NCBI GenBank assembly: GCA_964356235.1
Contig: CAYHGJ010000002.1
Coordinates: 1 to 34,871, forward strand
Reading direction: 5' to 3'
Origin: an uncultured Candidatus Saccharibacteria bacterium
Lineage (GTDB): Bacteria > Patescibacteriota > Minisyncoccia > Phycocordibacterales > CAYHGJ01
Length of the DNA: 34,871 bases
This document shows, piece after piece, positions 17,963 to 33,728 of this stretch. The notes beneath the pieces are model-generated. The model did not search any database. It was given only the letters and a program-made list of their open reading frames with translations, and had not been told where the DNA came from. The position numbers were made by a program, and so were the translations under genes. Within the stretch, counting starts at the first letter, position 1. Each line of letters starts with the position of its first letter.

Positions 17963-17973
17963 GAAACTAAAAA

Positions 17974-18003: not shown

Positions 18004-18025
18004 TTTTCTTTTGCTTTTTTGCGAT

Positions 18026-19438: not shown

Positions 19439-19517
19439 AAAACTAATTTACCACATTTGATAACTTTTGTCTTTTTGTTAATATCAAATTTTCTTTGGTG
19501 CTATAATTTAATGTGAC

Positions 19518-21668
19518 ATGAAAAAACACGGATTGATAAATAAAAAAACGACACTGGCCTTTATATCTTTGACTATTTTTTTCCTAGGGGCTCTTTTGAT
19601 GTGGCTTGCCACCCTTCCCATACCAGACCTTGACTCGTTTGAAGAAAGAAAGGTCTCTCAATCCACAAAGATATACGACAGGACTGGTAAAGTCTTGCTA
19701 TATGATGTTAGCCAAAATATAAGACGCACCATAGTACCTATTGACGAGATATCAAGATACGCAAAAAATGCCACTGTGGCCATAGAGGATAGTGAATTTT
19801 ATGAGCATAACGGCATAAAACCAAAAGCAATCCTGCGCGCTGTACTTGTCAATATGTTTTCGTTTGGTTTCAACCAGGGGGGCTCCACCATCACACAACA
19901 AGTGGTCAAAAACTCTCTCCTTGTTCAAGATAAGCTCATATCTAGAAAACTAAAAGAGTGGGTTTTGGCTATAAAAATAGAAAAGGTTTTAAGCAAGGAG
20001 CGCATTTTGGAAATTTACCTAAACGATGCTCCCTACGGTGGAAGTATTTATGGAATACAAGAAGCCTCTCTGGCCTTCTTTGGAAAAACAAGTCGTGACC
20101 TAACCCTTGCCGAGGCGGCCTATCTTGCGGCTCTCCCCCAAGCCCCTTCTTATTATTCTCCGTATGGAAAAAATAAAAATAAGCTTGATCAAAGAAAAGA
20201 TTTGGTGCTCTCAAAAATGTTAGAGAATGATTTTATAGAAAAGGGTGAGTATGAGCAGGCCAAGAAAGAAGTCATTTCCTTTTTGCCAAGACCGGAAGAG
20301 AACATACGAGCCCCACATTTTGTATTTTTTATTATTGATTATTTAAAACAAAAATATGGGGAGAGGGTTGTGGAGGAACAAGGGCTCAAGGTAACAACCA
20401 CGCTTGATTATGAAATGCAGAGAAAGGCGGAGGAGATTGTAAAAAAACACGCCTTAGAAAATAGCCAAAAGTTTAACGCGGAAAACGCATCACTTATTGC
20501 CATAGACCCAAAAACTGGGGACATCCTTGTTATGGTTGGTTCCCGTGATTATTTTGATAAAGAAATAGATGGCAACTTCAATGTGTCCATCGCGCATCGC
20601 CAGCCAGGCTCTGCATTCAAGCCTTTTGTTTATGCTGCATCTTTTCTTAAAGGATACACCCCGAAAACTATCGTTTTTGACCTGCCAACAGAATTTTCTA
20701 CTTCGTGCAGTTCTGATAGCCGTCCCCTTTTTGAAGGAGCTGTTTGTTACAACCCCACAAACTATGATGAGAAGTTTCGTGGCCCAATAATGCTCGAGGA
20801 AGCCTTGTCACAATCTATAAACATACCCTCTGTAAAACTTCTCTATCTTGTTGGTATAGACAAAGCTCTCGCGCTTGCAGAAAAAATGGGCATAGATTCC
20901 CTTGGCGATAAAAACCAGTACGGTCTGACTTTGGTGCTTGGAGGTGGAGAAGTCTCTCTCCTTGACATGACGAGCGCTTATGGAGTTTTTGCAAACGAGG
21001 GTATTCGCGCCCCCAAAAGGAGTGTATTAAAAATAGAGGACTCAACAGGAAAAATGCTCGAAGAGGAAGAAGCAAAAAGTGGTGAGGTTTTAGACAGACA
21101 AGCTGCTTTACAAATAAGCAAAATACTTTCAAGTGAGGCATTGCGCGCTCCAGCTTTTGGTTTTGGATCATACCTAAACATCCCTGCGCGCTTCGTAGCG
21201 GTCAAAACGGGTACCACAAACGATTATAAAGATGCGTGGATACTTGGATATACCCCATCCGTTGCCGTGGGTGCTTGGGCAGGCAACAACGACAACACAC
21301 CAATGGAGAAAAAGGTTGCTGGTTTTATTGTGGCGCCACTTTGGAACGAGTTCATGCAAGAGGTTTTGCAAAAATATCCAAATGAAAGTTTTAATGAGCC
21401 AGACTCGGAAATAAGTAGCAATTTAAAGCCAATCCTCCGTGGTGTTTGGCAAGGAGGAATTCTCTCCACAATAGATACTCGTACAGGACTCCCGTCAAAT
21501 GAAAGCACTCCGCCGGAATACAGAAAGGAAGTTTACTCAAATGAGGTTCATTCTATTTTGCACTGGGTAGATAAAAACAACCCAAGGGGACCATCCCCCA
21601 CAAACCCACAAAATGACCCCCAGTATAGATTGTGGGAACCCTCTGTACAAAAATGGCTAGCCAGATAA
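19518..21668 (+). CDS. class A penicillin-binding protein (glycosyltransferase plus transpeptidase)
   Basis: GT51 motifs EDSEFYEHNGI, GGSTITQQ, RKLKEW. Transpeptidase motifs SAFKP, SQSIN (SxN) and KTGTT. Confidence 0.9.
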   Translation: MKKHGLINKKTTLAFISLTIFFLGALLMWLATLPIPDLDSFEERKVSQSTKIYDRTGKVLLYDVSQNIRRTIVPIDEISRYAKNATVAIEDSEFYEHNGIKPKAILRAVLVNMFSFGFNQGGSTITQQVVKNSLLVQDKLISRKLKEWVLAIKIEKVLSKERILEIYLNDAPYGGSIYGIQEASLAFFGKTSRDLTLAEAAYLAALPQAPSYYSPYGKNKNKLDQRKDLVLSKMLENDFIEKGEYEQAKKEVISFLPRPEENIRAPHFVFFIIDYLKQKYGERVVEEQGLKVTTTLDYEMQRKAEEIVKKHALENSQKFNAENASLIAIDPKTGDILVMVGSRDYFDKEIDGNFNVSIAHRQPGSAFKPFVYAASFLKGYTPKTIVFDLPTEFSTSCSSDSRPLFEGAVCYNPTNYDEKFRGPIMLEEALSQSINIPSVKLLYLVGIDKALALAEKMGIDSLGDKNQYGLTLVLGGGEVSLLDMTSAYGVFANEGIRAPKRSVLKIEDSTGKMLEEEEAKSGEVLDRQAALQISKILSSEALRAPAFGFGSYLNIPARFVAVKTGTTNDYKDAWILGYTPSVAVGAWAGNNDNTPMEKKVAGFIVAPLWNEFMQEVLQKYPNESFNEPDSEISSNLKPILRGVWQGGILSTIDTRTGLPSNESTPPEYRKEVYSNEVHSILHWVDKNNPRGPSPTNPQNDPQYRLWEPSVQKWLAR

Positions 21669-21708
21669 AAAGGGCCGCTGGCATGCTGTTTGTAAGCTTG
21701 TCTTTATA

Positions 21709-21966
21709 CTAAATAATATCTCTTGGTGTTTTGTTGGAAACTAGAAGACGAGTCTCGTTTAATATTTCTTCTTTTTTTATAAGAATTTTTATTTTTGTGC
21801 TTTGATTTGTTTGTATTCTTGCGACCACTCCATTTATTTTTATATTCTTTACTTCGATTTTTATCCCAGTAACCTTTTCTATAACAGAAGACAAAACATC
21901 TTTTGTTTTTTGATCTTTGTTTTGAAAATTTCTAAACCTCTCTATAAGCTCTGATATCTTTTGCAT
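21709..21966 (-). CDS. DUF721/DciA-like small protein (tentative)
   Basis: 85 aa directly downstream of dnaN. The pattern ...VIEKVTGIKIEVKNIKINGVVARIQTNQSTKIKILIKKEEIL resembles DUF721. Confidence 0.45.
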   Translation of the reverse strand: MQKISELIERFRNFQNKDQKTKDVLSSVIEKVTGIKIEVKNIKINGVVARIQTNQSTKIKILIKKEEILNETRLLVSNKTPRDII

Positions 21967-22013
21967 TTTTTTCCTCTCCCCAGTTTCTAACTACTAACTT
22001 ATAACTAATATTA

Positions 22014-23117
22014 TTATCTATTCATCGGCATCACAAGGTATGAGAAAGATTCGTCTGATACCCCCTTTATGACCATTGGTTTCCCGCTATCATTTAGTCC
22101 CAAAGAGACGCTGTCGGCCTCTATTGATTGGAATGAATCTAATATGTATCTATAATTAAATTTTATTTCTATTTGCTCCCCACTTAATGCTCCGTCTATT
22201 TCTGTTTTGTTTTCCCCAACATCCGCGTTTGTTGTTTCTACGGAGAATTTTTTAGATTTGGGGTCTGCTTTAAATGTTATCTGATTAAATTTGTCAGAAA
22301 AAACGGTTGCCACCTTCATGGCATTTAAGAAATCCTGTTTTAACAATATAACCTCTGTTTTAAATCCTTTTGGAAAAAGTTGTTTGTAGTCTGGAAAGGT
22401 GCCGTCAATTACTCTTGATGTTATATAGTTTCCATTAAAACTAAAAGATATTTGGTTTTTATTCAAAGAAAAGTCCACCTCCTCGTTACTATTTTCAAGG
22501 TTTCTTATTATTTCTGGGATGTTTTTAATCGGTAGTAAAAGCTGGCGAAACTCTGTTTTTGTGTTTTTATTTTGAACTCTTTTCTCTGCTAGTCTAAAAG
22601 AGTCTGTGGCGACAAAGTATATAAAACCGTCTTTGCTTTCAAGCATAACGCTTGAAAGTTCCGGTTTTATGTTCGAATTTGATGCGCTAAAATAAACAGA
22701 TTTTAGACCCTTTACTAAAAGCTTTGGGTCTATCTTAAAGGCCACACCATCCTCTATTTTTGGAATATTTGGAAAATCTTCATGGTTTATGCTTTTTATA
22801 AGCGTTGCGTTTTTAGGAGTGGAAACTTTTAGGTTGCCGTCTTTTGTTTCAAGGGTTATGTTTTTATCAGAGATGATATTTTGAATAAAATTGTTCAAAA
22901 CCACTGCCGGAACACAAATAATCCCCGTTTTTTCTGTTTTTGCCGGTATTTTTATCTCTATACCAACATCGAGGTTTGTGGCCCTAATAACAAGCTCGTT
23001 ATTTTTTGCCTCTAAAAAAAGACAATTCAAAACGGGCAGGCTCATATTTCTCCCAGCAACTTTTTCTGCCCGAAACACAGCATCATTTAATTTTTCCTTT
23101 AAAACCTCTGTTTTCAT
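22014..23117 (-). CDS. dnaN: DNA polymerase III beta sliding clamp
   Basis: 367 aa with three-domain clamp architecture, C-terminal YLVMPMN, located downstream of dnaA. Confidence 0.95.
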   Translation of the reverse strand: MKTEVLKEKLNDAVFRAEKVAGRNMSLPVLNCLFLEAKNNELVIRATNLDVGIEIKIPAKTEKTGIICVPAVVLNNFIQNIISDKNITLETKDGNLKVSTPKNATLIKSINHEDFPNIPKIEDGVAFKIDPKLLVKGLKSVYFSASNSNIKPELSSVMLESKDGFIYFVATDSFRLAEKRVQNKNTKTEFRQLLLPIKNIPEIIRNLENSNEEVDFSLNKNQISFSFNGNYITSRVIDGTFPDYKQLFPKGFKTEVILLKQDFLNAMKVATVFSDKFNQITFKADPKSKKFSVETTNADVGENKTEIDGALSGEQIEIKFNYRYILDSFQSIEADSVSLGLNDSGKPMVIKGVSDESFSYLVMPMNR

Positions 23118-23384
23118 AATTAATTATTTTTTATATAAAGAAGATTATTATTTTTATTATAAGTGTGGATATGTTAGTTTCTTTATTTTACGCTTTGTTA
23201 TATGAATAATTTTGTGCTACCAAAAAAGAATTACTCGCTTAAAACTACCTACCAATACCTCCACTATTTTTAGTAATCATTTTTTTATTTTAAAAACACA
23301 AACTTTTCCACAAACAACTAATAATTTTTACAAAACTTATACACAAACACATACAGACTTTTCCACACAAAGCCAAACAGAAAA
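23118..23384. promoter_or_regulatory. candidate oriC (DnaA-box cluster plus AT-rich unwinding tract)
   Basis: 8-of-9 DnaA boxes TGTGGATAT (23164-23172), TTTTCCACA (23304-23312 and 23359-23367) and TTATACACA (23337-23345). Almost pure A/T tract at 23118-23160. Confidence 0.6.
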
Positions 23385-24728
23385 TCAAATCATCGTCCTA
23401 ATCTGGTTTATCTCATCAATAAGAGTGCCATCAATTTTTAAATCATTCTTAACCTTTTCATACGAATGAATCACGGTTGTGTGGTCTCTTCCCCCAAGTT
23501 TCTGTCCTATTGTTGGATATGGAATATTAAAATCTTCTCTCAATATATACATAATAAGCTGTCTTGGCTTCACCACCTCTTTTTTTCTCGTTTTTTTGTA
23601 TATAGAATCCTCCTCAATATTGTAAAAACCAGCAACAGCCCTAACAATGTCTTTTATAGGGACTGTTTTTTTAGGTCGTATATTATTTTTTATTAAATTT
23701 TTTATCTCCGGAAGGCTTGGAACTTTTTCTTTTAGCCTTGCTTGGCAGACAATCATATTTAGAGTGCCTTCAAGCTCCCTTATGTTTCCTTCTATGGAAA
23801 GAGATAAATATTGAAGAGCCTCTTCGGGTATTTCTATGTCGTTTTGAGTTGCTTTGGCCTTTAATATAGCCATTCTAGACTCGTGGTCAGGAGAAGGAAT
23901 GTCTATCAACATGCCGGCGCTGAAACGAGACTTTAAACGCTCTTCAAGGCCCGGAATGTAGTTTACATGCTTGTCTGATGAGAAAATTATTTGCTTGTTA
24001 TTATCATACATGGTGTTGAAGAGATGAAAGAGCTCTTCTTGGGTCTTTTCTTTGTTTGAGAAAAATTGAACATCATCCATAATCAAAACATCATATTTTC
24101 TGTATCTTTCTTTGAAATCATTTGTATTGTGGTTGGCAAGAGAGTTCATATAGTCAAGGGCAAATCTTTCAGAAGTAACATAAAAAATCTTTTTTGACGG
24201 GTCGTTTGTTTTTATTTGATTTCCTACCGCTTGTATGAGATGTGTTTTGCCGTGACCTGTTTTTCCATAAATGAAAAGAGGGTTATAGGCGATGCCCGGT
24301 TTTTTGACAACCGCCTGAGCGGCGGCGTAAGCCATGTCATTGAAAGAGCCGACAACAAAATTTTCAAAAACATAACGAGGGTTTAGGTTATCATCTTTGT
24401 TTATATAATAATCTGCCAAAGGAAGCTCATCTGTTGTTCTGCTGTATGCAGACTCGCTGGGGTCTTTCTTGTAAGGGTTGTTTTTTGAGATAATGTATTC
24501 AAGCCCGCGCACCCCCTCAGACCCCCTGCGGAGTGTTTTCAATATAAACTGGTGGTATTTTTTGGTTAACCAATCTTTTACAAACTGATTTGGGACACCA
24601 ACATAAACAACGTTTTCTTCTTGTTTGAAGATAAAAGTATCTTTAAACCAAGTGTTAAAATTTGCCTTAGAAACCTCGATCTCTATTTCAGAAAGAGAGC
24701 TTTCCCAAAGTTGTCTGTTGTCTACCAT
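23385..24728 (-). CDS. dnaA: chromosomal replication initiator DnaA
   Basis: Walker A GKTGHGKTHL, DDVQFF, domain IV GGRDHTTVIHSYEKV. TGA stop at the canonical end. Confidence 0.95.
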   Translation of the reverse strand: MVDNRQLWESSLSEIEIEVSKANFNTWFKDTFIFKQEENVVYVGVPNQFVKDWLTKKYHQFILKTLRRGSEGVRGLEYIISKNNPYKKDPSESAYSRTTDELPLADYYINKDDNLNPRYVFENFVVGSFNDMAYAAAQAVVKKPGIAYNPLFIYGKTGHGKTHLIQAVGNQIKTNDPSKKIFYVTSERFALDYMNSLANHNTNDFKERYRKYDVLIMDDVQFFSNKEKTQEELFHLFNTMYDNNKQIIFSSDKHVNYIPGLEERLKSRFSAGMLIDIPSPDHESRMAILKAKATQNDIEIPEEALQYLSLSIEGNIRELEGTLNMIVCQARLKEKVPSLPEIKNLIKNNIRPKKTVPIKDIVRAVAGFYNIEEDSIYKKTRKKEVVKPRQLIMYILREDFNIPYPTIGQKLGGRDHTTVIHSYEKVKNDLKIDGTLIDEINQIRTMI

Positions 24729-24923
24729 TTTGTTTTAAAAGATTAAAAAGATTAAAGAGTCGGTGCCCATATTATATCCTTAAAGAAAAGAAGCGAAACT
24801 TGTTAAACCCCGTCAAATATGTTAATAATGTGTGCATAAGTTAGCAAATTTCACGCTTGACATTCTATTTCCGCTTTATACGCTTATACAATTTATAAAA
24901 ACAATAGACTTAATAAATAATCT

Positions 24924-25058
24924 ATGTCATTTACTTACAAAGGAAAGGTTAGAAAAAAGAAAAGAAGCCACGGATTCTTGGCAAGGAAGAGTACTCCGGG
25001 GGGCAAAAAGGTTGTAAAAAGACGCCGAGCAAGAGGAAGAAAGAAATTAACCTCATAA
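24924..25058 (+). CDS. rpmH: 50S ribosomal protein L34
   Basis: 44-aa ORF absent from the supplied track: MSFTYKGKVRKKKRSHGFLARKSTPGGKKVVKRRRARGRKKLTS. It has the classic L34 pattern and the classic position beside rnpA and dnaA. Confidence 0.9.
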   Translation: MSFTYKGKVRKKKRSHGFLARKSTPGGKKVVKRRRARGRKKLTS

Positions 25059-25064
25059 TGGAAA

Positions 25065-25099
25065 AACACCCCGCCAAAGCAGTGCTTTGGCGGGGTGTT
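25065..25099 (+). terminator. strong hairpin after rpmH
   Basis: AACACCCCGCCAAAGC-agt-GCTTTGGCGGGGTGTT. The T-run is weak, so it may be an attenuator or processing site. Confidence 0.55.
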
Positions 25100-25123
25100 C
25101 ACTAACACATAGCACCAAACAAC

Positions 25124-25447
25124 ATGCTTTCAAAGAACAAAAGGCTAAACAAAGCCAAATTTAAGGAAATTTTAAAAAAATCCAAGAAAATTGAGGGAGA
25201 AAATTTTTCATACAGGGTGCAGTTTATAAAAAACGGCCAAGAACCGAGGTTTTCTGTGGTGGTATCTTCCAAAGTGTCGCCAAAAGCGGTTGTTCGAAAC
25301 AAGATAAGAAGACAGATATACGAAATATTAGGAAAAACCGCTCTGAATGGTCAAATATCTGCGATTGTATATGTAAAAAAAGAGGCCCTAAAACTTGATT
25401 TTAGGGCTATGAATAAGGAAATTTCTGGTGTTTTGGGCAAGATTTAG
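25124..25447 (+). CDS. rnpA: ribonuclease P protein component
   Basis: Basic 107-aa protein, KNKRLNKAKFKEI..., VVSSKVSPKAVVRNKIRRQ (RNR motif), downstream of rpmH. Confidence 0.85.
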   Translation: MLSKNKRLNKAKFKEILKKSKKIEGENFSYRVQFIKNGQEPRFSVVVSSKVSPKAVVRNKIRRQIYEILGKTALNGQISAIVYVKKEALKLDFRAMNKEISGVLGKI

Positions 25448-25448
25448 C

Positions 25449-25477
25449 TTGACATATAAACGTTTTGGGTGTATAAT
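25449..25477 (+). promoter_or_regulatory. consensus sigma70 promoter, unit 1
   Basis: TTGACA (25449-25454), 17-nt spacer, TATAAT (25472-25477). It starts 2 nt after the rnpA stop. Confidence 0.7.
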
Positions 25478-25497
25478 ACTAAGAGGAGGACAGTCAG

Positions 25498-25638
25498 ATG
25501 ACTTGGCTCATCGTGTGGGACACCCGTCAGGGTCAGACGGTTGAGATCTACATTGGAGGAGCTGACAAGTTCGCAGACTATCTGCGCCACAAGATCAGCT
25601 CTGGATTCAAGGCGGTCTCAATCTGCTGTCAGGGCTAG
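25498..25638 (+). CDS. 46-aa protein of unknown function
   Basis: AAGAGGAGG SD 8 nt upstream of the ATG. MTWLIVWDTRQGQTVEIYIGGADKFADYLRHKISSGFKAVSICCQG. GC-richer than the flanks. Absent from the track because it is shorter than 60 aa. Confidence 0.45.
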   Translation: MTWLIVWDTRQGQTVEIYIGGADKFADYLRHKISSGFKAVSICCQG

Positions 25639-25661
25639 CGGCCCTGTCCTAACCCTGACAA

Positions 25662-25686
25662 GTGGCGCGGAAACGCGCCACTTTTT
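25662..25686 (+). terminator. intrinsic terminator, unit 1
   Basis: GTGGCGCG-GAAA-CGCGCCAC followed by TTTTT. Confidence 0.8.
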
Positions 25687-25721
25687 AAAGCCGTTTTGGA
25701 GGCAAAGGGATTGTTTTAATA

Positions 25722-25750
25722 TTGACAAACTAGTTAATTAGGAGTATAAT
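25722..25750 (+). promoter_or_regulatory. consensus sigma70 promoter, unit 2
   Basis: TTGACA (25722-25727), 17-nt spacer, TATAAT (25745-25750). Confidence 0.7.
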
Positions 25751-25770
25751 AAACATAGGAGGAAACAAAC

Positions 25771-25953
25771 ATGGACAGCGTGGACAGACAAAAAGTCCTA
25801 AGGCGGGCGACCCTTGTGGGTGCAGGTGTATTTTTAGTAGCTCTTTTTTTGATTGAAGTTTTTTTTGGAGGGATTGATATCCCCCTGGTTGTATTTGCTG
25901 GGGGCATCGCAGTAGCATCTGGGGTGATTTACGATTGCATTGTGTGCTGGTAG
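25771..25953 (+). CDS. 60-aa two-TM membrane protein of unknown function
   Basis: AGGAGG SD (25757-25762). MDSVDRQKVLRRATLVGAGVFLVALFLIEVFFGGIDIPLVVFAGGIAVASGVIYDCIVCW. Confidence 0.5.
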   Translation: MDSVDRQKVLRRATLVGAGVFLVALFLIEVFFGGIDIPLVVFAGGIAVASGVIYDCIVCW

Positions 25954-25959
25954 GTTGGA

Positions 25960-25985
25960 AGTGGGGATTCGTCCCCGCTTTTTTA
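25960..25985 (+). terminator. intrinsic terminator, unit 2
   Basis: AGTGGGGA-TTCG-TCCCCGCT followed by TTTTTT. Confidence 0.8.
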
Positions 25986-25998
25986 TTACCACGTTCAC

Positions 25999-26027
25999 TT
26001 GACATGCATTAATTATCAGAATATACT
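25999..26027 (+). promoter_or_regulatory. near-consensus sigma70 promoter, unit 3
   Basis: TTGACA (25999-26004), 17-nt spacer, TATACT (26022-26027). Confidence 0.6.
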
Positions 26028-26033
26028 TTAAAA

Positions 26034-26078
26034 CAATGCAGACATAGCTGTCCGCCCGAGAGGGTGGGCATTTTGTTT
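26034..26078 (+). ncRNA. candidate ~45-nt small RNA (promoter-to-terminator unit without a real ORF)
   Basis: Only a 3-codon ATG-CAG-ACA-TAG lies between the promoter and the terminator TGTCCGCCC-GAGA-GGGTGGGCA plus TTTTGTTT (26049-26078). The 5' end is assumed, not observed. Confidence 0.3.
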
Positions 26079-26180
26079 AATTGTCATAATGCGAATAAAG
26101 CAAAAAAGACGCGAATGGCACGAATTTTAAACAATAAAACAAATGTTTTTAATAACTAATATCTACTAACTAATAATTAT

Positions 26181-27404
26181 ATGTTTGACCTAAAAGTTAT
26201 AAACTCAGTTCTTTCTCAGCTTGAGGAGGAAAAAGCCATACCAAGAGAAAAAGTTCTAGACGCCATAGAATCTGCTTTGGCGACGGCTTACAAAAAAGAA
26301 TATGGCAAGAAGCATCAGATAATCAAATGCACTTTTGACCTAAATACTGGAAAAACAGAATTTTTTCAAATGAAAAAAGTGATTTCACCTGATATGGTTG
26401 TTCCAGAAGATGAAGATTTGCCTATTGGTAATGATGAAATGGTGCATTTCAACGAAGAAAGACATATATACATAGATGATGCCAAAAGAATCAAGAAAGA
26501 TATTTCTGTTGGGGAAGAAATAAGTTTTCCTCTTGAAGACAAACATGATTTTGGAAGAATTTCTGCGCAGACCGCAAAACAAGTTATTATACAAAAAATA
26601 AGAGAGGCAGAAAGAAGTTCTGTGTTTAGCGAGTATGGACAAAGAGAAGGAGAGATTGTTTCTGGTACAGTTCAGAGAATCGAAAGAGGGAATATTTTTG
26701 TGGACCTCGGAAGGGCCACTGGTATTATTCCTTATGAAGAGCAGATCCCAGGAGAAAGATATAAACAAGGAGAAATAATCAGAGGATATCTCTACTCTGT
26801 GGAAGAAAGCCCAAGAGGAATATTTGTTAGAATTTCTCGCTCACACCCAAAGTTTCTGGTTAAACTTTTTGAAAATGAGGCGCCTGAGATTGCAACAGGT
26901 GTTGTAGAAATAAAAGCGGTGGCAAGAGAAGCTGGGGCTCGATCAAAAATAGCGGTTCTTTCCCACGATGCGCAGGTGGATCCTGTGGGTGCATGTGTTG
27001 GACAACGAGGGTCTCGTGTTTCTGTTGTCACAAGCGAGCTTGGAGGAGAAAGAATAGATATTGTGGAGTGGTCGCCAGAGGACGTGAGGTTTATAGAAGA
27101 GGCTCTCTCTCCTGCCAAAATAAATAATGTGAAGATAATTGATGAAGAAGAAAAAAGGGCAGAAGTAGAAGTGGCCGAAGATCAGCTGTCTCTTGCCATT
27201 GGTAAGGGAGGACAAAATGTTCGTTTGGCGGCAAAACTTACTGGCTGGAAGATAGACATAAAATCTAACATGATGAAAAAAGAAGAAAACAACGAAGAGG
27301 ATGAGGGGGTAGATTATGGCACAGAGATATATACAGAAGAAAGCCCTCAAAAAGAAGATGAAACTGTTTCTTCAAAAAGTGACGAAGAGAAAGCAGAAGA
27401 ATAG
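26181..27404 (+). CDS. nusA: transcription termination/antitermination factor NusA
   Basis: N-terminal domain, S1 domain (GEIVSGTVQRIERGNIFVDLG), two KH domains (GACVGQRGSRV, AIGKGGQNVRLA), acidic tail. Confidence 0.95.
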   Translation: MFDLKVINSVLSQLEEEKAIPREKVLDAIESALATAYKKEYGKKHQIIKCTFDLNTGKTEFFQMKKVISPDMVVPEDEDLPIGNDEMVHFNEERHIYIDDAKRIKKDISVGEEISFPLEDKHDFGRISAQTAKQVIIQKIREAERSSVFSEYGQREGEIVSGTVQRIERGNIFVDLGRATGIIPYEEQIPGERYKQGEIIRGYLYSVEESPRGIFVRISRSHPKFLVKLFENEAPEIATGVVEIKAVAREAGARSKIAVLSHDAQVDPVGACVGQRGSRVSVVTSELGGERIDIVEWSPEDVRFIEEALSPAKINNVKIIDEEEKRAEVEVAEDQLSLAIGKGGQNVRLAAKLTGWKIDIKSNMMKKEENNEEDEGVDYGTEIYTEESPQKEDETVSSKSDEEKAEE

Positions 27405-27508
27405 ATGTTAAGAACTCAAACCAAAAACAGTTTTTTACTTTGGGGGGTATTTTTTGTATAATGGTAAGGATTATTAGAGGTTCGTTTTTAACCAAAGATA
27501 TAAACAAT

Positions 27509-28234
27509 ATGAAGAAACTTACATTTTTGATAGCGCTTATGATGGTGGCGCTCCCAGCCTTTGCCCTGGCCGAGGAGGATTCTCTCAAAGAGGATGAGAG
27601 CAGAGGGTATGGTATTAGAAGTTTGTGGCAAGAAAGCAGAGAAAAAAGAGAAGAGGAAAGAGAGGCCCTTCTTGAAAAAAGAAAGGAGTGTCTTGAAGAG
27701 AGGGAGGATGATTGTTCCCCACTTCTTTTAGGACAAGAGAGAAGAGAAGAGAAGAAAAATGAAGTAAAAAAGATGATGGAGGAGCAGAGAAAGAAAATGG
27801 AAGAAAGAAGAGCAGAAATAAAAGCGAAAGTTTCTGAAAAGCTAGCAGAAGCATTTGAGAAATCATTTGAAAACTTCAAAAAAGCAACGGAAAGGTTGGC
27901 AGAACACACTACAAATATAGAAGAAAGAATATCGGAGTTTGAAGCTGACGGAAGAGATTTGGCAAATGCCAAAAAAGAGCTTGAAGAGGCAAAAGTTTTG
28001 ATAGGGGCACTTCCTGCCATTATAGAAACGGCAGAGAAAAGTATTGCTGAGAAACTTTCTCTTGATGATCCAAAAAATAAAATTCCTGAAATAAGGCAAA
28101 TCTTGAATGAAACGAAACAACAGATAAAGGATGCTCATAAAGCGCTCATCGAGGCAATTGTTGAAATAAAAAACAACATAAAGTCAGAGGAAGATGAAAG
28201 CGATGATGATTCGGCAGACGACACTTCAAATTAA
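27509..28234 (+). CDS. secreted coiled-coil protein, unknown function
   Basis: MKKLTFLIALMMVALPAFALA signal peptide, E/K/R-rich helical body, acidic tail. Upstream TTTACT-17 nt-TATAAT. Confidence 0.55.
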   Translation: MKKLTFLIALMMVALPAFALAEEDSLKEDESRGYGIRSLWQESREKREEEREALLEKRKECLEEREDDCSPLLLGQERREEKKNEVKKMMEEQRKKMEERRAEIKAKVSEKLAEAFEKSFENFKKATERLAEHTTNIEERISEFEADGRDLANAKKELEEAKVLIGALPAIIETAEKSIAEKLSLDDPKNKIPEIRQILNETKQQIKDAHKALIEAIVEIKNNIKSEEDESDDDSADDTSN

Positions 28235-28244
28235 AAATTTATTC

Positions 28245-28297
28245 ACCCTGTTAAATCATTCTCGTCGAGAATGACACAGTGGTGTATTTAACAGGGT
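28245..28297 (+). repeat. ACCCTG-family inverted repeat, short member
   Basis: ACCCTGTTAAAT (28245-28256) and ATTTAACAGGGT (28286-28297). Nested hairpin CATTCTC-gtc-GAGAATG (28257-28273). Confidence 0.85.
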
Positions 28298-28315
28298 AAA
28301 CTTAACTAAAACAAC

Positions 28316-28585
28316 ATGGAAGGTTTCACACCAAATCCAAACATAGGAAGCGCAAGCACTTCTCCGGAAAAAGGAGGAATGGGGGCTCTCATAGGATCGG
28401 TCATCGTCGTTATCATTTTAGTCTTCGGGGGGATTTATTTTTGGGGACAAAATGTTGATGAAATAAAAAAGTCTGAAAATGCCACAACCACAGATTCTAT
28501 TTCTGATATTGAGGCCGATTTAAATGCAGAAAATCTAGACACGCTAGATGCCGATTTGGATCAGAGTCTTAACACAGAGCTTTAA
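28316..28585 (+). CDS. small membrane-anchored protein, unknown function
   Basis: 89 aa, single TM helix (ALIGSVIVVIILVFGGIYFW), acidic C-terminal tail. A terminator follows. Confidence 0.45.
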   Translation: MEGFTPNPNIGSASTSPEKGGMGALIGSVIVVIILVFGGIYFWGQNVDEIKKSENATTTDSISDIEADLNAENLDTLDADLDQSLNTEL

Positions 28586-28602
28586 TTGTTTTTTCAAAAA
28601 AT

Positions 28603-28641
28603 CACTCCACTCCGCCAGCTGGCGGATTGGGGTGGTTTTTT
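28603..28641 (+). terminator. intrinsic terminator
   Basis: CACTCCACTCCGCC-AGCT-GGCGGATTGGGGTGG followed by TTTTTT. Confidence 0.7.
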
Positions 28642-28655
28642 GTTTGAGGGGCATG

Positions 28656-28787
28656 CCCGCACACCAACCCTGCCATTATTTTACTTTGTCAGCAACTTAT
28701 TTTTTTCTATACTGATTAAAACGATAAGATGTATTAATAAAAATTATATATAAAAATAGTGAGGCGATGGCAGGGTTGGTGTGCGGG
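28656..28787 (+). repeat. 21-bp perfect inverted repeat enclosing a 90-nt AT-rich promoter-like segment upstream of tig
   Basis: CCCGCACACCAACCCTGCCAT (28656-28676) and ATGGCAGGGTTGGTGTGCGGG (28767-28787). The interior has TTGTCA (28686-28691), 16 nt, TATACT (28708-28713), pointing at tig. Confidence 0.9.
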
Positions 28788-28827
28788 TTTTGATTTTTTC
28801 TTAAAATTCGTATACCTTTAATGAGCG

Positions 28828-29841
28828 ATGACAACAATAAAAAAATTAGATAATAGCGAAGTAGAGATAGAGGCCGAAATAGAAGTGGACGTTTTAGACA
28901 AGCATTTCAACGAGATTTTAAATGAGTCTGTCAAAGAGTTTGAGACTCATGGGTTTAGAAAGGGCAAGGCCCCTCTCTCTTTGGTTAGGCAAAAAATAGG
29001 AGAGAAGTACCTTTTGGATGAGGCGGGACTTTCTGCCATAGAAGAAGAATATTTATCTATATTGGAGAAGGAAAACATAAAAGCCATTGGCTCCCCCGCT
29101 GTCACTATAATCAAGCTTGCGCTTGGCAACCCTCTTTTATTTAAGATAAAAACTGCTGTTTTGCCAGAGTTTACCCTTCCGGACTATAAGAAAATTGGAA
29201 GTGAAGTAAACAAAACAAAAATAAAAGAAGAAGAATTATCTCCAACAGAGGAGGAGATAAAAAATGTTTTGATGCAAATAAGAATGTCAGGAATGTCTCA
29301 AAAAGAAAAAGAAGACAAAAAAAAGCCGGCAGAGTTGACAGATGAACTTGCTAAAAAGCTTGGCGCGAAAGGCAAGGAAGACTTGGAGAAAAAAGTAAAA
29401 GAAAATCTAACACAAGAAAAAACTTATCACCATAAAGAAAAGAAAAGAGCTGAGATTTCTGAAAAACTTATCGCAAGCACCGAGATTTTATTGCCGAGCA
29501 TTTTAGTAGAAAATGAATTGTCAAAAATGCTCGGGGAGTTTGGTGCAAACATTGAAAAAATGGGTCTCAAAAAAGAAGATTACCTTAAAAAAATAAACAA
29601 GAGTGAAGAAAAATTGAAAGAAGAATGGAAGACGGATGCAGAAAAAAGAGTGAAACTTCAACTTGTTATAAATAAAATTTCTGAAACAGAAAAACTAATT
29701 CCAGACCGTGACAAGGTAAAAAGAGAGGCGGAGCACCTGCTCCACCATTATAATGACGCTTCTCCGGAGAGAGTGCTTGATTATGTGGAGATGATAATGA
29801 CTAATGAAACAGTATTTGATTTTCTAGAAAATCAAAAATAG
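28828..29841 (+). CDS. tig: trigger factor, short form lacking the PPIase domain
   Basis: N-terminal ribosome-binding signature GFRKGKAP. The sequence passes from the N domain directly into the helical C-terminal arm region. 337 aa. Confidence 0.8.
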   Translation: MTTIKKLDNSEVEIEAEIEVDVLDKHFNEILNESVKEFETHGFRKGKAPLSLVRQKIGEKYLLDEAGLSAIEEEYLSILEKENIKAIGSPAVTIIKLALGNPLLFKIKTAVLPEFTLPDYKKIGSEVNKTKIKEEELSPTEEEIKNVLMQIRMSGMSQKEKEDKKKPAELTDELAKKLGAKGKEDLEKKVKENLTQEKTYHHKEKKRAEISEKLIASTEILLPSILVENELSKMLGEFGANIEKMGLKKEDYLKKINKSEEKLKEEWKTDAEKRVKLQLVINKISETEKLIPDRDKVKREAEHLLHHYNDASPERVLDYVEMIMTNETVFDFLENQK

Positions 29842-29876
29842 TCAAAATGTGTTAGAATATAAAAGTCGTTAATTTA

Positions 29877-30010
29877 TCCGCACACTGACCCTGTTATCGT
29901 CTAATATTTTGATGATTGAGACTTACCATTTGGTTTTGTATAATAAGGGTGGTATAAAGAGATACCCGATTTATTACAAAGACAAAATAATAACAGGGTT
30001 AGTGTGCGGA
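29877..30010 (+). repeat. 21-bp inverted repeat (20 Watson-Crick pairs plus one G.T) enclosing a 92-nt promoter-like segment upstream of clpP
   Basis: TCCGCACACTGACCCTGTTAT (29877-29897) and ATAACAGGGTTAGTGTGCGGA (29990-30010). The interior has TTGAGA (29916-29921), 17 nt, TATAAT (29939-29944), pointing at clpP. Confidence 0.9.
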
Positions 30011-30033
30011 CACGCTCATAACCCAAAACTCAC

Positions 30034-30615
30034 ATGTTAGTCCCAATCGTTGTAGATAAAACCCAGTTTGGAGAGAGGTCATATGATATATACTCTCGCC
30101 TGTTAAAAGATAGGATAGTTTTTCTTGCCGGTCCCATTGATGATGTTGTGGCAAATATTGTTATTGCCCAGCTTCTCTTTTTGGAATCGGAGGATTCAAA
30201 GAAGGACATATATCTTTACATAAACTCTCCGGGAGGAGATGTTAGCGCTGGCCTTGCTATCATAGATACAATGAACCACATCAAACCTCCTGTAAACACT
30301 GTTTGTGTAGGACTTGCCGCCTCAGCAGCCGCCATCATCCTTGCCTCTGGCCAAAAGGGCAAAAGGTTTGCTCTGCCAAATGCCGAAATAATGATTCACC
30401 AACCATGGGGAGGGGCTCAAGGTCAGACTTCGGATATTGAGATTACTGCCAAAAGAATGCTTAGAATGAGAGAAAACCTCAACAAAATGCTTTCTGATAA
30501 AACAGGACAACCTTTAGACAAGGTTTCCAAGGACGTGGATAGAGACTATTTTATGTCAGCAGATGAGGCCAAAAAATACGGACTTATTGATGAGGTGTAT
30601 AAGGTAAAGAAATAG
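30034..30615 (+). CDS. clpP: ATP-dependent Clp protease proteolytic subunit
   Basis: [17 protein letters not shown], catalytic GLAASAAA (Ser), MIHQP (His). Confidence 0.95.
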
Positions 30616-30640
30616 AAGGGAGCAAAAAAGCGCAAAAAGC

Positions 30641-30679
30641 AACCCCCCACTTGGCGGTTAAACCGCCAAGTGGGGGGTT
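30641..30679. terminator. 39-nt perfect palindrome after clpP
   Basis: AACCCCCCACTTGGCGGTT a AACCGCCAAGTGGGGGGTT. No clean U-run follows. The TTGTCA at 30678-30683 overlaps its end. Confidence 0.6.
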
Positions 30680-30724
30680 GTCAATAGGGGGGTTTTATGG
30701 TAATGTCAAAAATGGAGGTGATAT

Positions 30725-31120
30725 ATGAGGTCTCTACAAAGTCCATTTAATTGGACAGAAGTAGTAAGAGTAATTGTCGCGGCTTCTTTTTGTATTTTGA
30801 GCATAGGTGTAATTGTTTCTCTGTCTATCAGGGCAGCAAACATTGATCATGGGAAAGATTCCTCACCAATTCCCATCGGGATTTCTTCTGAAGGAGAATG
30901 GCGCGAAGTTGTTGGTGGCCCTTCATATGCGGAAGGAGTACCCTATTTTGTTTTGAAAAGCGGGTATGTCGCTTTCTGTTCCAGAGAAAAACTTGAAACA
31001 CTTGGTGGCAAAAAATACCCTCTTGAAGCAAGAGTGCGGAGTGTGCCGGGGCGATATTCCCTTGCGATTACGGGAGGACAAGTTATCTTGGAATTTAGGG
31101 AGATAAAAAATGTTCCGTAG
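30725..31120 (+). CDS. membrane-anchored protein, unknown function
   Basis: Anti-SD-complementary GGAGGTGAT (30714-22). N-terminal TM helix (VVRVIVAASFCILSIGVIVSL). GC-richer than the flanks. Confidence 0.5.
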   Translation: MRSLQSPFNWTEVVRVIVAASFCILSIGVIVSLSIRAANIDHGKDSSPIPIGISSEGEWREVVGGPSYAEGVPYFVLKSGYVAFCSREKLETLGGKKYPLEARVRSVPGRYSLAITGGQVILEFREIKNVP

Positions 31121-31274
31121 AACAAAGGAAGAGAAGGCTCGTTCAAAAGAACTGAATAAAATGGTTTTTTGGTTTCTTTGGAACACGGGAATTCTACCAA
31201 CATATATTGTAATTATGATTCTTCTCCTAGTTTTCATTATTGGCTTTGGAACAATGTCAACTCATGGGCGCTGA
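31110..31274 (+). CDS. 54-aa membrane protein, overlaps the previous gene by 11 nt
   Basis: MFRRTKEEKARSKELNKMVFWFLWNTGILPTYIVIMILLLVFIIGFGTMSTHGR. Basic N-terminus then hydrophobic helices. Absent from the track. TGA stop. Confidence 0.4.
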   Translation: MFRRTKEEKARSKELNKMVFWFLWNTGILPTYIVIMILLLVFIIGFGTMSTHGR

Positions 31275-31284
31275 AAGTTTCTAT

Positions 31285-31312
31285 ATCTCGAGGAAATCCC
31301 TCGAGATTTTTG
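31285..31312 (+). terminator. intrinsic terminator
   Basis: ATCTCGAGG-aaatc-CCTCGAGAT followed by TTTTTG. Confidence 0.8.
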
Positions 31313-31572
31313 TTATACAAATGTGTTGATAACATTATAAACCAGCCGTAACACTCCGTTTTTTTGATGTCTTGCCAAAACTACCGCCTTCTTGTATGAT
31401 AAGAGCATTAATCAATTAATTATTTAGTTCGCTTTTCGAGAAATTCCATTTTAAGCACGCAGTTTCCTAAAAAACCTAGATTTTTCAAAGCATTTTACGC
31501 ATGTTTACAATAAATTACAGTTATAGACTGCTCAACTTTAAAAGAACCTAGAAAGGCGAAAATTTATTCGCT

Positions 31573-33102
31573 ATGTCATTAAAATTAGTACTAGTTTTGG
31601 CAAGTTTTGCCGGACTAATTGGTATTGGCATTGGTTATTTTCTTAGAATACTGGTAGCTCTTGGCAAGAAGGGCTCTGTGGAGTTAGAGGTCAAACAACT
31701 ACTCCTTGATGCCAGAGGAGAAGCAAAAGAAATAACCGATAAAGCTCAAACCAGAGCAGAAGAAGTATTAGAGCAGGCCAAGTTTGAGCTTAAAGAAAAA
31801 GACGATAAGCTCAAAAAAACAGAAGACAGACTTGTCAAAAAAGAAGAGCTTTTGGACAAAAGACAGGTAGATATAGACACAGAGGCAGAAAATCTAAAAG
31901 CCAAAGTGTCTGAGATAAAGAAAATAAAAGAAAAGGCTGAAGAAATAGAGCAAGAAAAGAAAAAAGAACTTGAAAGAGTGGCTCGTCTTACAGAAGAAGA
32001 AGGCAAGGCCGAACTTCTCAGAATGCTTGAAAAGCAATATGAGGAGGATTTGGTTGTTAGGGTCCACAAACTAGAAGAAACAGGAAAAGAGGAACTTGAA
32101 AGAAAGGCTCAGGACATTTTGATTACCTCAATACACAGACTCGGCAACTCAGTTGCCAATGATGTTCTTTCTACATCTGTAGATATTCCATCAGATGAAG
32201 TCAAAGGTAAAATTATTGGTAAAGAAGGCAGAAATATAAAAGCGTTTGAGAGAATAACTGGCGTGGAGGTTATAGTGGATGATACTCCGGGCAGTATTAT
32301 GATTTCTTCATTTGACCCAATAAGAAGACAAATTGCCAGAGTGGCGCTTGAAAGGCTTGTTGCAGATGGCAGGATACAGCCGGCCAAAATAGAAGAAGAA
32401 GTAGAGAAAGCAAAACAAGATATAAACAAAATTGTTAAGGAAAAGGGAGAAAAGGCGGCCTACGAGTGTGGGGTTTTCAACCTAGACCCTAGGATTATAG
32501 CTATTTTAGGAAGACTACACTTCCGCACAAGCTATGGGCAAAATGTTTTGCAACACTCCATTGAGATGGCTCATATTTCCGGCATGATTGCTGAGGAGCT
32601 TGGGGTGAATGTTGCCATTGCCAAAGCAGGGGCCTTGCTTCACGATATCGGGAAAGCTGTAGACCACGAGGTGGTGGGCACTCATGTGGAAATTGGCAGA
32701 AGAATATTGCAAAAATTTGGGGCAGATGAAAGGATTGTCCAAGCAATGCAGGCTCATCACGAGGAATACCCTTATGAAACACCAGAATCCATCATTGTGC
32801 AGGTAGCAGATGCTATATCTGGTGGTCGTCCGGGGGCAAGAAGAGACACGGTGGAAAACTATCTCAAAAGACTCGGAGACTTGGAGGCTATTGCCAACTC
32901 TATGCCGGGGGTGGAAAAGTCTTACGCCTTGCAGGCAGGTAGAGAGGTCAGGATATTTGTTACCCCAGAGCAGGTGACTGATTTGGAGGCTAGAAATATG
33001 GCCCGTGAGATAGCTGTCAGGATAGAAAATGAGCTTAAATACCCAGGGGAGATCAAAGTCAATGTTATAAGAGAGTCCAGGGCGATTGAATTTGCTAGAT
33101 AA
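31573..33102 (+). CDS. rny: ribonuclease Y
   Basis: N-terminal TM helix, long coiled coil, KH domain (GKIIGKEGRNIKAFE), HD domain (LLHDIGKA...HHEE). Confidence 0.95.
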   Translation: MSLKLVLVLASFAGLIGIGIGYFLRILVALGKKGSVELEVKQLLLDARGEAKEITDKAQTRAEEVLEQAKFELKEKDDKLKKTEDRLVKKEELLDKRQVDIDTEAENLKAKVSEIKKIKEKAEEIEQEKKKELERVARLTEEEGKAELLRMLEKQYEEDLVVRVHKLEETGKEELERKAQDILITSIHRLGNSVANDVLSTSVDIPSDEVKGKIIGKEGRNIKAFERITGVEVIVDDTPGSIMISSFDPIRRQIARVALERLVADGRIQPAKIEEEVEKAKQDINKIVKEKGEKAAYECGVFNLDPRIIAILGRLHFRTSYGQNVLQHSIEMAHISGMIAEELGVNVAIAKAGALLHDIGKAVDHEVVGTHVEIGRRILQKFGADERIVQAMQAHHEEYPYETPESIIVQVADAISGGRPGARRDTVENYLKRLGDLEAIANSMPGVEKSYALQAGREVRIFVTPEQVTDLEARNMAREIAVRIENELKYPGEIKVNVIRESRAIEFAR

Positions 33103-33154
33103 AAGGTTAATGCTTGCCCCCGTAGCTTCCGAGCCTTGCGAGGAATGGTTCGGG

Positions 33155-33193
33155 GTTATTAGAGAATCTAGGGCCATTGAATTTGCAAGGTAA
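33155..33193 (+). other. second, out-of-frame copy of the last 12 codons plus stop of rny
   Basis: GTT ATT AGA GAA TCT AGG GCC ATT GAA TTT GCA AGG TAA encodes VIRESRAIEFAR*, the same peptide as 33064-33102. 33 of 39 nt are identical. Confidence 0.85.
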
Positions 33194-33197
33194 AATA

Positions 33198-33232
33198 GTT
33201 CATAAAGTTCATAAAGTACAAGGTTCATAAAG
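33198..33232 (+). repeat. GTTCATAAA 9-mer repeats (three copies)
   Basis: GTTCATAAA at 33198, 33207 and 33223. Related to the element at 17011-17128. Confidence 0.75.
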
Positions 33233-33246
33233 GAGGAGAAAAGAAA

Positions 33247-33280
33247 AGGGCTTGGGCATTCGCCCAAGCTCTGTTTTGTT
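33247..33280 (+). terminator. intrinsic terminator after rny
   Basis: AGGGCTTGGGC-attc-GCCCAAGCTCT followed by GTTTTGTT. Confidence 0.7.
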
Positions 33281-33720: not shown

Positions 33721-33728
33721 CCACTTAC

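Follow-up and report, generated by a model that had tools for sequence, protein, structure and literature searches.

Two putative mini-protein cassettes and a conserved nusA leader hairpin in the rnpA-nusA spacer of a Patescibacteria genome

The DNA analyzed here comprises positions 1 to 34,871 of contig CAYHGJ010000002.1 (assembly GCA_964356235.1), from an uncultured Candidatus Saccharibacteria bacterium of the Patescibacteriota, and this whole stretch is referred to as the window. We describe the spacer between its rnpA and nusA genes, where an initial annotation had noted three back-to-back promoter-to-terminator units and had taken them for a small foreign module. Reading of the sequence from 25000 to 26600 places the rnpA stop codon TAG at 25445-25447, with three co-oriented units downstream of it, up to nusA. 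The left flank, rnpA (25124-25447, plus strand), encodes the RNase P protein, whose identical product carries the PF00825 Ribonuclease_P domain, and the junction from rnpA to unit 1 is without a terminator. The right flank, nusA (26181-27404, plus strand), is the gene served by unit 3, and among the matches listed its product is 62-70% identical to NusA in 80 Paceibacteria/Parcubacteria genomes. The segment is surrounded by dnaN, dnaA, rpmH, rnpA, nusA, tig, clpP and rny. The location near the replication origin assumed at the outset agrees both with the gene strands (dnaN and dnaA minus, rpmH and rnpA plus) and with the cumulative GC skew minimum at about 23.6 kb. The reading that we consider probable, taken as a whole, is that units 1 and 2 are self-contained, lineage-specific expression cassettes for orphan mini-proteins and that unit 3 represents the native promoter and 5' leader of nusA.

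Unit 1 starts with a consensus promoter on the plus strand (25449-25477; TTGACA at 25449-25454, a 17-nt spacer and TATAAT at 25472-25477; 12 of 12 consensus positions), followed by the Shine-Dalgarno (SD) sequence AAGAGGAGG at 25481-25489 with an anti-SD duplex energy of -11.9 kcal/mol. The open reading frame (ORF) for a 46-aa protein, p46, begins with ATG at 25498, extends to 25638 and ends in ICCQG. An extra hairpin at 25627-25660 overlaps its stop codon, and the unit is closed at 25660-25686 by the terminator AAGUGGCGCG-GAAA-CGCGCCACUU, with a 10-bp stem and a U-run, which probably also terminates the rpmH-rnpA transcript. Unit 2 has the same organization on the same strand: a TTGACA-17-TATAAT promoter (25722-25750; 12/12), the SD sequence AGGAGG (25757-25762; -10.2 kcal/mol), an ORF for a 60-aa protein, p60, ending in DCIVCW (25771-25953; called in three independent assemblies) and the terminator GGAAGUGGGGA-UUCG-UCCCCGCUUUU with an 11-bp stem and U-run (25957-25984). 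Unit 3, also on the plus strand, consists of a TTGACA-17-TATACT promoter (25999-26027; 11/12), the three-codon ORF ATG CAG ACA TAG (26037-26048) and the hairpin UGUCCGCCC-GAGA-GGGUGGGCA (stem 26049-26070), which is followed by UUUUGUUU, an interrupted U-run. The three terminators are predicted to fold at -20.0 (z = -5.9), -18.6 (z = -4.3) and -19.8 kcal/mol (z = -4.1), and for all three units 0 of 200 shuffles were equally stable.

A consensus scan of 17000-34871 ranks the three promoters first, second and third among 55 sites, and only one further 12/12 promoter, at 13228 on the minus strand, was found in the entire window. The GC content of 25449-25998 is 0.469 compared to 0.354 and 0.338 in the flanks. 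The promoters, the strongly folding tetraloop terminators, the SD sequences, both small ORFs and the GC-richness relative to the neighbors were thus all present as the initial annotation had described them. Both unit 1 and unit 2 surround a single ORF with their own promoter and their own terminator, and when 784 kb of Paceibacteria sequence were scanned strictly for a promoter, an SD sequence, an ORF no longer than 110 aa and a terminator, these two units alone were recovered. Their -10 regions and 5' untranslated regions (UTRs) are about 77% identical (repeat D4). A tandem duplication of the whole units was rejected, since the likeness is confined to this part and the ORFs are unrelated. We also considered a class-specific extended promoter motif, GGGTGTATAAT, present in the cassettes as in some nusA promoters; it was dropped because few relatives share it.

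The segment is natural. By means of the exact RnpA protein it was identified in four independent ENA assemblies of groundwater from the Hainich aquifer (wells H41 and H51, 0.1 um fraction) with 99.9-100% identity. One of these, L002, covers the region from dnaA to nusA including rnpA and the two small ORFs, and both segment borders, which had been marked for a check, are thereby independently supported. The p46 protein on record derives from the NCBI contig, identical with the window. The setting is consistent with published genome-resolved studies of candidate phyla radiation bacteria from the Hainich aquifer (PMC8672522), and metatranscriptomes from these wells are available as well (PMC12960796). 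A blastn search with 25440-26100 against plasmids (PLSDB) and phages (INPHARED) returned only chance matches of 26-47 nt, so that the known vector or contaminant considered initially found no meaningful match. The perfect promoters and the GAAA and UUCG tetraloops do give the signals a near-designed look, as might suit a vector or spike-in. Against such an origin, the four assemblies and the NCBI contig are concordant, L002 crosses both junctions, and no plasmid or phage match exceeds 47 nt. An assembly artefact and a vector, plasmid or phage contaminant were both rejected on these grounds, and we regard the chance of a chimera or of contamination as practically negligible.

Comparison with relatives separates unit 3 from units 1 and 2. 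Neither rnpA nor rpmH nor dnaA was found within 4 kb upstream of nusA in any of the 80 NusA-relative genomes, and the rnpA-nusA adjacency is therefore peculiar to this lineage. A contig from the scan of RnpA relatives, L086, which represents a genus-level relative, has the same dnaA-rpmH-rnpA-nusA order as the window, with identities of 67% for RnpA, 80% for RpmH, 83% for DnaA and 86% for the NusA N-terminus. Its rnpA-nusA spacer of 141 nt contains a single unit, in which TTGACT-17-TATACT (1333-1361), the counterpart of the unit 3 promoter, is followed by 'cagacaCagctgtccgcccgagagggtgggcattttgttta'. A single base distinguishes this sequence from the 41 nt at 26039-26079 of the window, and the core hairpin with its U-run (26046-26079) is identical. 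Units 1 and 2 were absent from L086 and from the 80 other relatives in tblastn searches. Because the L086 spacer holds the counterpart of unit 3 alone, we regard unit 3 as ancestral and units 1 and 2 as extra DNA. The three-codon ORF is incidental, as it is not conserved and L086 has no ATG at that place. The earlier description of unit 3 as a three-codon ORF plus a hairpin RNA was thus right as to the presence of both, while the ORF carries no weight and the hairpin belongs to the nusA leader.

This arrangement is conserved far beyond the two contigs. A near-consensus promoter, then an (A)GUUCGCC-loop-GGCGRRC(U) hairpin and then a U-run were detected by a scan in 74 of 82 nusA-upstream regions, and most of the remaining eight show the same arrangement when judged by eye. 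Near-consensus promoters, considered unusual in the initial annotation, are so inside the window but are standard for nusA across the class. The hairpin core (the G of GUUCGCC) begins 12-14 nt after the -10 element in most loci; for L086 and the window this distance is 22-23 nt. In an alignment of 69 sequences, the seven core pairs are kept almost without exception; the changes observed are one-sided ones from U.G to U-A or C-G, together with compensatory double changes at three pairs. Paired cells amount to 84.8%, compared to 33-53% when the 3' arm was slid by 1-3 columns, and the covariation score lies above that of all 500 shuffles. Since the frequent U.G pairs spoil a DNA palindrome and keep the RNA pairing, the conserved element is an RNA structure in the sense of nusA rather than a DNA operator.

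A covariance model built from the 69-sequence alignment, R1, matches the hairpin and U-run of the window at 26045-26080 on the plus strand (30.9 bits, E = 2e-4). The search of 769 kb yielded 78 matches at E < 0.01, all on the plus strand and directly upstream of nusA with one match per locus (78 of the 82 Paceibacteria loci), and several of the matched loci lie outside the seed. R1 had no match elsewhere in the 769 kb and none in the 12 searched loci with rnpA but without nusA; a regular expression search was concordant. The gap between the hairpin and the nusA ATG is only 17-30 nt in many loci, which leaves no space for another promoter, and nusA must therefore be transcribed through the hairpin. 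The rest of the leader in the window (26081-26180, plus strand) is AT-rich, contains three (G)CGAAT repeats and has no SD sequence. No Rfam 15 family was found at the hairpin, either in the window and 16 relatives at the gathering threshold or in 25300-26250 at E <= 10, where only noise appeared; the gathering scan of the whole window gave two tRNAs only. We classify the nusA leader hairpin as a new RNA family not represented in Rfam; its regulatory type, the leader terminator, is a known one.

The most likely role of the hairpin is that of a NusA-responsive attenuator. Transcription of nusA would pass an intrinsic terminator in its own leader, and abundant NusA would stimulate termination there and so limit its own synthesis. 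The cassette terminators would end the rpmH-rnpA and cassette transcripts and spare the nusA leader their read-through, the terminator of unit 2 in particular shielding the nusA promoter and leader. Such a circuit has been shown experimentally for B. subtilis, in which intrinsic termination promoted by NusA within the nusA 5' leader autoregulates nusA, according to the summary of Mondal et al. 2016 in PMC12288461. NusA-dependent terminators are suboptimal and have distal U-tract interruptions (PMC8060035). In the Paceibacteria loci the order of promoter, hairpin and nusA is that of a leader attenuator (74 of 82 by the scan, 78 of 82 by R1), and the anatomy is that of an intrinsic terminator, a GC-rich hairpin with a directly following U-run and with U.G pairs in the sense RNA only. 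Both here and in B. subtilis, an intrinsic terminator between promoter and nusA has to be read through, and the U.G pairs at the stem base and the interrupted U-run in the window give it a similarly suboptimal look. Unlike in B. subtilis, the hairpin occupies the outermost 5' end of the transcript, nusA follows it directly without an intervening rimP, and the two leaders have no detectable sequence or Rfam relationship. As no Rfam family matches, the Paceibacteria leader is an analogue rather than a member by descent.

We assign the hairpin to a nusA leader element on the basis of its position, its conservation, its pairing at the RNA level and its restriction to nusA, and NusA dependence is what we infer from the precedent. 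Two considerations weigh against this last step: the precedent comes from another phylum and Rfam revealed no homology to any described leader, and the hairpin could be a strong constitutive terminator or a stabilizing 5' stem. A conserved but constitutive element, whether a stem that stabilizes the mRNA, a damper or insulator of fixed strength or a tiny stand-alone RNA gene, is a possibility that we hold to be rather doubtful. The core in most loci lies some 12-14 nt past the -10 element and so at the very 5' end of the transcript, as fits a protective stem, and the GUUCGCC sequence is kept in addition to the pairing, which suggests recognition by a factor, not necessarily NusA. On the other hand, the U-run behind the hairpin in nearly all loci is the mark of a terminator, and the occurrence in 769 kb is exclusive to nusA. 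The U.G pairs at the stem base and the interrupted U-run in the window fit the suboptimal terminators assisted by NusA (PMC8060035), and the B. subtilis circuit is a direct precedent (PMC12288461, as summarized there). NusA-responsive attenuation therefore would be our preferred explanation of the leader.

Several nusA leaders contain more than the terminator. In L005, L013, L021, L024, L043, L046, L049, L052, L054 and L075, about 100-380 nt of extra leader lie between the terminator and the nusA ATG, with conserved distant complementary blocks 'AACGAGCGAAGCGACTATAATTTT' ... 'GATTTTTATAGTCGCTTCGCTC...AAAATCATTC ATG', pointing to a further structured RNA element within the 5' UTR of these nusA genes. 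Another conserved type of nusA leader was found in L015, L035, L039, L048, L076 and L084. No Rfam family was detected in the loci with long or other-type leaders. CGAAT/ATTCG repeats are present in the nusA leaders of the window (26090-26125) and of L018, L031, L057, L060 and L067, and a block 'ATTCGTAGCYATTCGTAGATTCG' recurs in several relatives. In the window, five of the seven ATTCG[CT]A occurrences lie in sense orientation within 120 nt upstream of a start codon (7046, 7056, 11969 on the minus strand, 13248 and 28806). CGAAT/ATTCG may be a 5' UTR motif in these largely SD-less genomes.

With unit 3 conserved as an ancestral nusA leader in 78 of 82 loci, it is not the partner small RNA of units 1 and 2. 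It had been suggested that the segment is a single imported module with a membrane toxin, a partner protein and a small RNA, or an immunity or exclusion module; in such a module, p60 would be the toxin, p46 the partner or immunity protein and unit 3 the regulatory or antitoxin RNA. The three units are indeed adjacent and co-oriented, p60 is small and hydrophobic with a predicted helical hairpin, and it bears a weak, sub-threshold likeness to a holin family and to MarC (E = 0.06-0.09). This reading is largely refuted for unit 3, which is kept without units 1 and 2 in L086 and is linked to nusA throughout the class. The complementarity expected of unit 3 RNA to the mRNAs of units 1 and 2 was no better than in shuffled sequence, where 38 of 200 and 32 of 200 shuffles, respectively, paired as well by duplex energy, and a role as their antisense regulator was rejected accordingly. 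A consensus scan of 25449-26000 found no minus-strand promoter scoring at least 9/12. Moreover, a toxin with a 12/12 promoter, a strong SD sequence and no visible repression would be hard to tolerate, and neither peptide matches a PADLOC, Pfam, PHROG or NCBIfam family. We consider the three-part module very unlikely.

The comparison with type I toxin-antitoxin systems (Hok/Sok, TisB/IstR, Fst/RNAII) leads to the same distinction. Both have an intergenic ORF for a small hydrophobic protein close to a small structured RNA. Unlike those systems, this locus lacks an overlapping or antisense RNA gene, its structured RNA is the conserved leader of nusA, and p60 has two helices in 60 aa behind an unrepressed consensus promoter and a strong SD sequence.

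The two cassette proteins appear to be orphans. The predicted fold of p46 is soluble, beta-beta-alpha-beta (AlphaFold2 from the single sequence, pLDDT 76), and p60 is predicted by the same method to form a two-helix membrane hairpin (helices 3-32 and 36-59, pLDDT 80), in line with the two-helix membrane protein proposed at first. In p60, the N-terminus is basic (RQKVLRR), the IDIP loop is short and helix 2 contains small-residue motifs, from which both ends are predicted to face the cytoplasm. Searches with p46 and p60 against 5.8 billion proteins returned only the proteins themselves. An exhaustive HMMER search of 1.84 billion representatives with p46 gave p46 and three repeat proteins (WD40, Big_13 and ankyrin). 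The latter were regarded as spurious because they belong to three unrelated families and their scores are summed over many weak repeats; for example, 'VWDTRQGQ' of p46 resembles the WD40 sequence 'VWDTRTGQ'. Pfam, PHROGs, NCBIfam and PADLOC gave nothing significant and no toxin, immunity, defense or phage family for either protein, and a sequence search of the PDB gave nothing. No credible match came from tblastn of p46 against GenBank phage records or from a scan of IMG/VR with p60. The profile and structure searches proposed for both peptides thus returned no significant family or fold, although the fold of p46 resembles, below significance in Foldseek, many small uncharacterized phage proteins.

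Cysteine pairs terminate both proteins (ICCQG in p46 and DCIVCW in p60), which might hint, speculatively, at a shared cytoplasmic contact. As a guess in which we place little confidence, units 1 and 2 would provide a constitutive small membrane protein and a separately expressed cytosolic protein with an accessory role in the envelope or in exclusion, and not a toxin-antitoxin pair.

The codon composition differs between the two genes. The GC content at third codon positions (GC3) of p46 is 0.70 compared to 0.369 in host genes (p = 4e-6), with GC3 > GC1 > GC2; its codon usage is foreign and its composition fits a genuine coding sequence from a GC-richer donor. The GC3 of p60 is 0.44, host-like and not significantly deviant. 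The SD sequences of both cassettes are strong, compared to 27 of 30 host genes with an SD duplex weaker than -5 kcal/mol (the exceptions being the genes at 30725, 16440 and 4114). The claim of a foreign module between rnpA and nusA therefore survives in part: units 1 and 2 are extra DNA, with the foreign codons of p46 and strong SD sequences, whereas unit 3 is native.

These properties also bear on whether the two ORFs are functional at all. Units 1 and 2 might be a decaying scrap of foreign DNA with two non-functional ORFs, as no credible homolog was found for p46 among 5.8 and 1.84 billion proteins or for p60 among 5.8 billion. The sole single-nucleotide polymorphism within the ORFs, 25940 T>A in L003, changes an amino acid, which points in the same direction. 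In contrast, all expression signals of both cassettes are intact and at consensus, the order GC3 > GC1 > GC2 in p46 is that of a real coding sequence from a GC-richer donor, both structures are predicted confidently from single sequences (pLDDT 76 and 80), and both ORFs stay open in four assemblies from two wells. We therefore regard decay as unlikely and continue to read units 1 and 2 as expression cassettes.

How the cassettes came to lie behind rnpA is less certain. Together they span 550 nt (25449-25998). A direct repeat of 8 nt, CTTGACAT, borders them; it is the only repeat there, and its copies form the -35 elements of two promoters. No terminal inverted repeats were found at 25449/25998 in the repeat search, and the borders are thus not those of an insertion sequence, a miniature inverted-repeat transposable element or an integron cassette. 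A more distant relative offers another view of the site. In L106, a 625-nt contig with an RnpA 54% identical to that of the window, a TTGACA-18-TATAAT promoter (12/12) begins 1 nt past the rnpA stop (…TTTGGATGTATAATA) in a context resembling unit 1. From 438 to 625 this contig shows the promoter, AGGAG and a small hydrophobic Gly/Ala-rich ORF (MIMKVSSLVIVVLVAMFFSGIIGYAIAGFKGAAYAAAGGAFMISLA...), which is interrupted by the contig end and has no similarity to p60. On account of the L106 promoter, a cassette site behind rnpA may be ancestral, with L086 as the loser.

Under this alternative, an ancestral site exchanges its cargo over time, and a deletion between repeated promoters removed the cassette from L086. 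The spacing and -10 context of the L106 promoter are like those of unit 1, and its AGGAG and two-helix-like hydrophobic ORF also fit. The likeness of about 77% between the promoters and 5' UTRs of units 1 and 2 suggests local duplication, p60 is host-like in GC3, and the repeat CTTGACAT could serve deletion as readily as insertion. Opposed to these points, the L106 ORF is unlike p60, the contig stops within it, before nusA could be reached, the codon usage of p46 is clearly foreign, and in more distant relatives yidC or yidD follows rnpA with no cassette. We see an ancestral site as possible, though not as the explanation to be expected. The functional reading of the cassettes is the same whichever the direction of change.

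The arguments that weigh against our reading of units 1 and 2 as acquired cassettes can be brought together here. The L106 promoter would allow an ancestral site in place of an insertion, and the host-like GC3 of p60 means that this gene need not be foreign. The transcript boundaries are all predicted. Foldseek comparisons of p46 with PDB and BFVD and of p60 with PDB were not significant (best E 0.07-3.5), and the amino-acid change in L003 noted above counts on the same side. We nevertheless keep the reading as cassettes, with the strength given at the start.

The initial annotation had also thought of a phage-moron remnant. Phage morons, such as the HK97 gene 15 element, are defined by a promoter and terminator of their own and by a GC content that deviates (PMC3594210). 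Units 1 and 2 are likewise independent transcription units with their own promoter and terminator, their GC content deviates from that of their neighbors (0.469 versus about 0.35; in GC3, p46 deviates and p60 does not significantly), and they are 'more DNA' between genes that are adjacent in L086. The analogy thus holds for the architecture, and it fails for the surroundings, since no phage, integrase or transposase gene or domain was found across the 34.9-kb window. The window content is housekeeping instead: pilin, RuvA, RuvB, Mur ligase, Fpg, PolA, TsaE, PilB and YebC, as well as TyrRS, PBP1, DnaN, DnaA, NusA, trigger factor, ClpP and RNase Y. In contrast to morons, units 1 and 2 lie outside a prophage, beside the replication origin, their promoter style matches the nusA promoters of the class, and their cargo is orphan and without known function. 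We call them moron-like and not morons because the prophage context is absent. With horizontally acquired genomic islets they share the deviant GC content and codon usage, the restricted distribution and the break in gene order. They differ from islets in being unusually compact with full consensus expression signals for each gene, and in that cassettes built alike are found again at 12.6-13.2 kb of the window as well as in further Paceibacteria genomes. We class units 1 and 2 as new orphan members of a known architecture, that of autonomous moron-like accessory cassettes.

The sister cassette in the same style lies between tsaE and pilB on the minus strand (12559-13228), and an independent Hainich contig, L107, also carries it. 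Its promoter is the further 12/12 site of the window, TG-extended (13228-13199), and its 5' UTR contains a hairpin and an SD sequence. The ORF (13110-12601) encodes a 169-aa orphan lipoprotein with the signal peptide MKKFFVVLIALVALGATGC, has a GC content of 63% and a GC3 of 0.72 (p = 7e-21), and showed no family match. The terminator, with a UUGC loop (12586-12559), is the best one in that half of the window. All foreign-looking cassettes have strong SD sequences, in contrast to the weak ones of 27 of 30 host genes. Immediately 3' of the lipoprotein cassette terminator, at 12497-12543, the sequence forms a perfect palindrome of about 44-47 nt (CCCATAGGATACACCTATGTA...TACATAGGTGTATCCTATGGG), for which Rfam gives only spurious microRNA-like matches.

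A related pattern was observed across the relatives. Behind strong promoters other than those of nusA, a GC-excess downstream was found in 10 of 45 cases compared to 2.4% of background windows, an enrichment of about 9-fold (p = 1e-7). The ORFs behind these promoters possess SD sequences, and lipoproteins and other orphan-like proteins are among them. GC-rich ORFs (0.52-0.62, in genomes of 0.38-0.44) with near-consensus promoters, SD sequences and terminators were noted in other Paceibacteria genomes: L045 at about 1545(-), L048 at about 627(-), L030 at 2367(+), L072 at 1045(+), L060 at 1234(-), L082 at 5738(-) and L053 at 2020(-). L045 and L048 have a common 5' UTR motif (ggcctaatgg) and near-identical terminators, and the lipoproteins encoded by L030 and L072, about 430-450 aa in length, are homologous and contain an HExxH metalloprotease motif. 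GC-rich, fully signaled cassettes seem to represent a recurrent carriage of accessory genes in these AT-rich, mostly SD-less genomes.

A bolder joint reading, which we offer only tentatively and rather doubt, would be that Paceibacteria acquire pre-packaged cassettes from a GC-richer donor or vehicle such as the host organism or a phage. Each would consist of a consensus sigma-70 promoter, a strong SD sequence of non-host type, a GC-rich orphan ORF and a tetraloop terminator. Units 1 and 2 would then be a new two-component small-protein system of a membrane hairpin and a cytosolic mini-protein, each with paired cysteines at its end, and GUUCGCC...GGCGRRC a class-wide NusA-sensing RNA not described before.

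Some further features of the window were observed apart from the segment. Between rpmH and rnpA, the sequence at 25065-25099 (AACACCCCGCCAAAGCA/TGCTTTGGCGGGGTGTT) forms a perfect hairpin of 17 bp with a loop of 1 nt. No U-run follows this hairpin, and it could be a processing or attenuation element within the rpmH-rnpA operon. The Mur ligase appears to be split into two adjacent ORFs, 3265-4095 with the middle domain and 4114-4569 with the C-terminal domain, a state that could reflect a frameshift, a pseudogene or a genuine split. The region 8049-8608 contains a tRNA gene (8049-8121) directly followed by the gene for a 155-aa protein with a Cas2-like/PaaX_M domain, at whose 5' end a palindrome with a 13-bp stem is located (8157-8186); no other CRISPR component was seen in the window.

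For annotation, the analysis separates a conserved regulatory element from lineage-specific cargo with which it is easily lumped together. The nusA leader hairpin is a compact and highly specific motif that accompanies the nusA promoter in almost all of the Paceibacteria genomes examined. To our knowledge, almost nothing is known about gene regulation in these ultra-small, mostly uncultured bacteria. If the hairpin is NusA-responsive, autoregulation of NusA, an essential elongation factor, by leader termination would be common to the Bacillota and the candidate phyla radiation. The practical importance of the orphan small proteins is modest for now. Units 1 and 2, the sister cassette and the link between consensus promoters and GC-rich ORFs together suggest that streamlined symbiotic genomes acquire accessory genes that are ready to be expressed, and such uptake is relevant to the adaptation of these bacteria to their hosts and phages.

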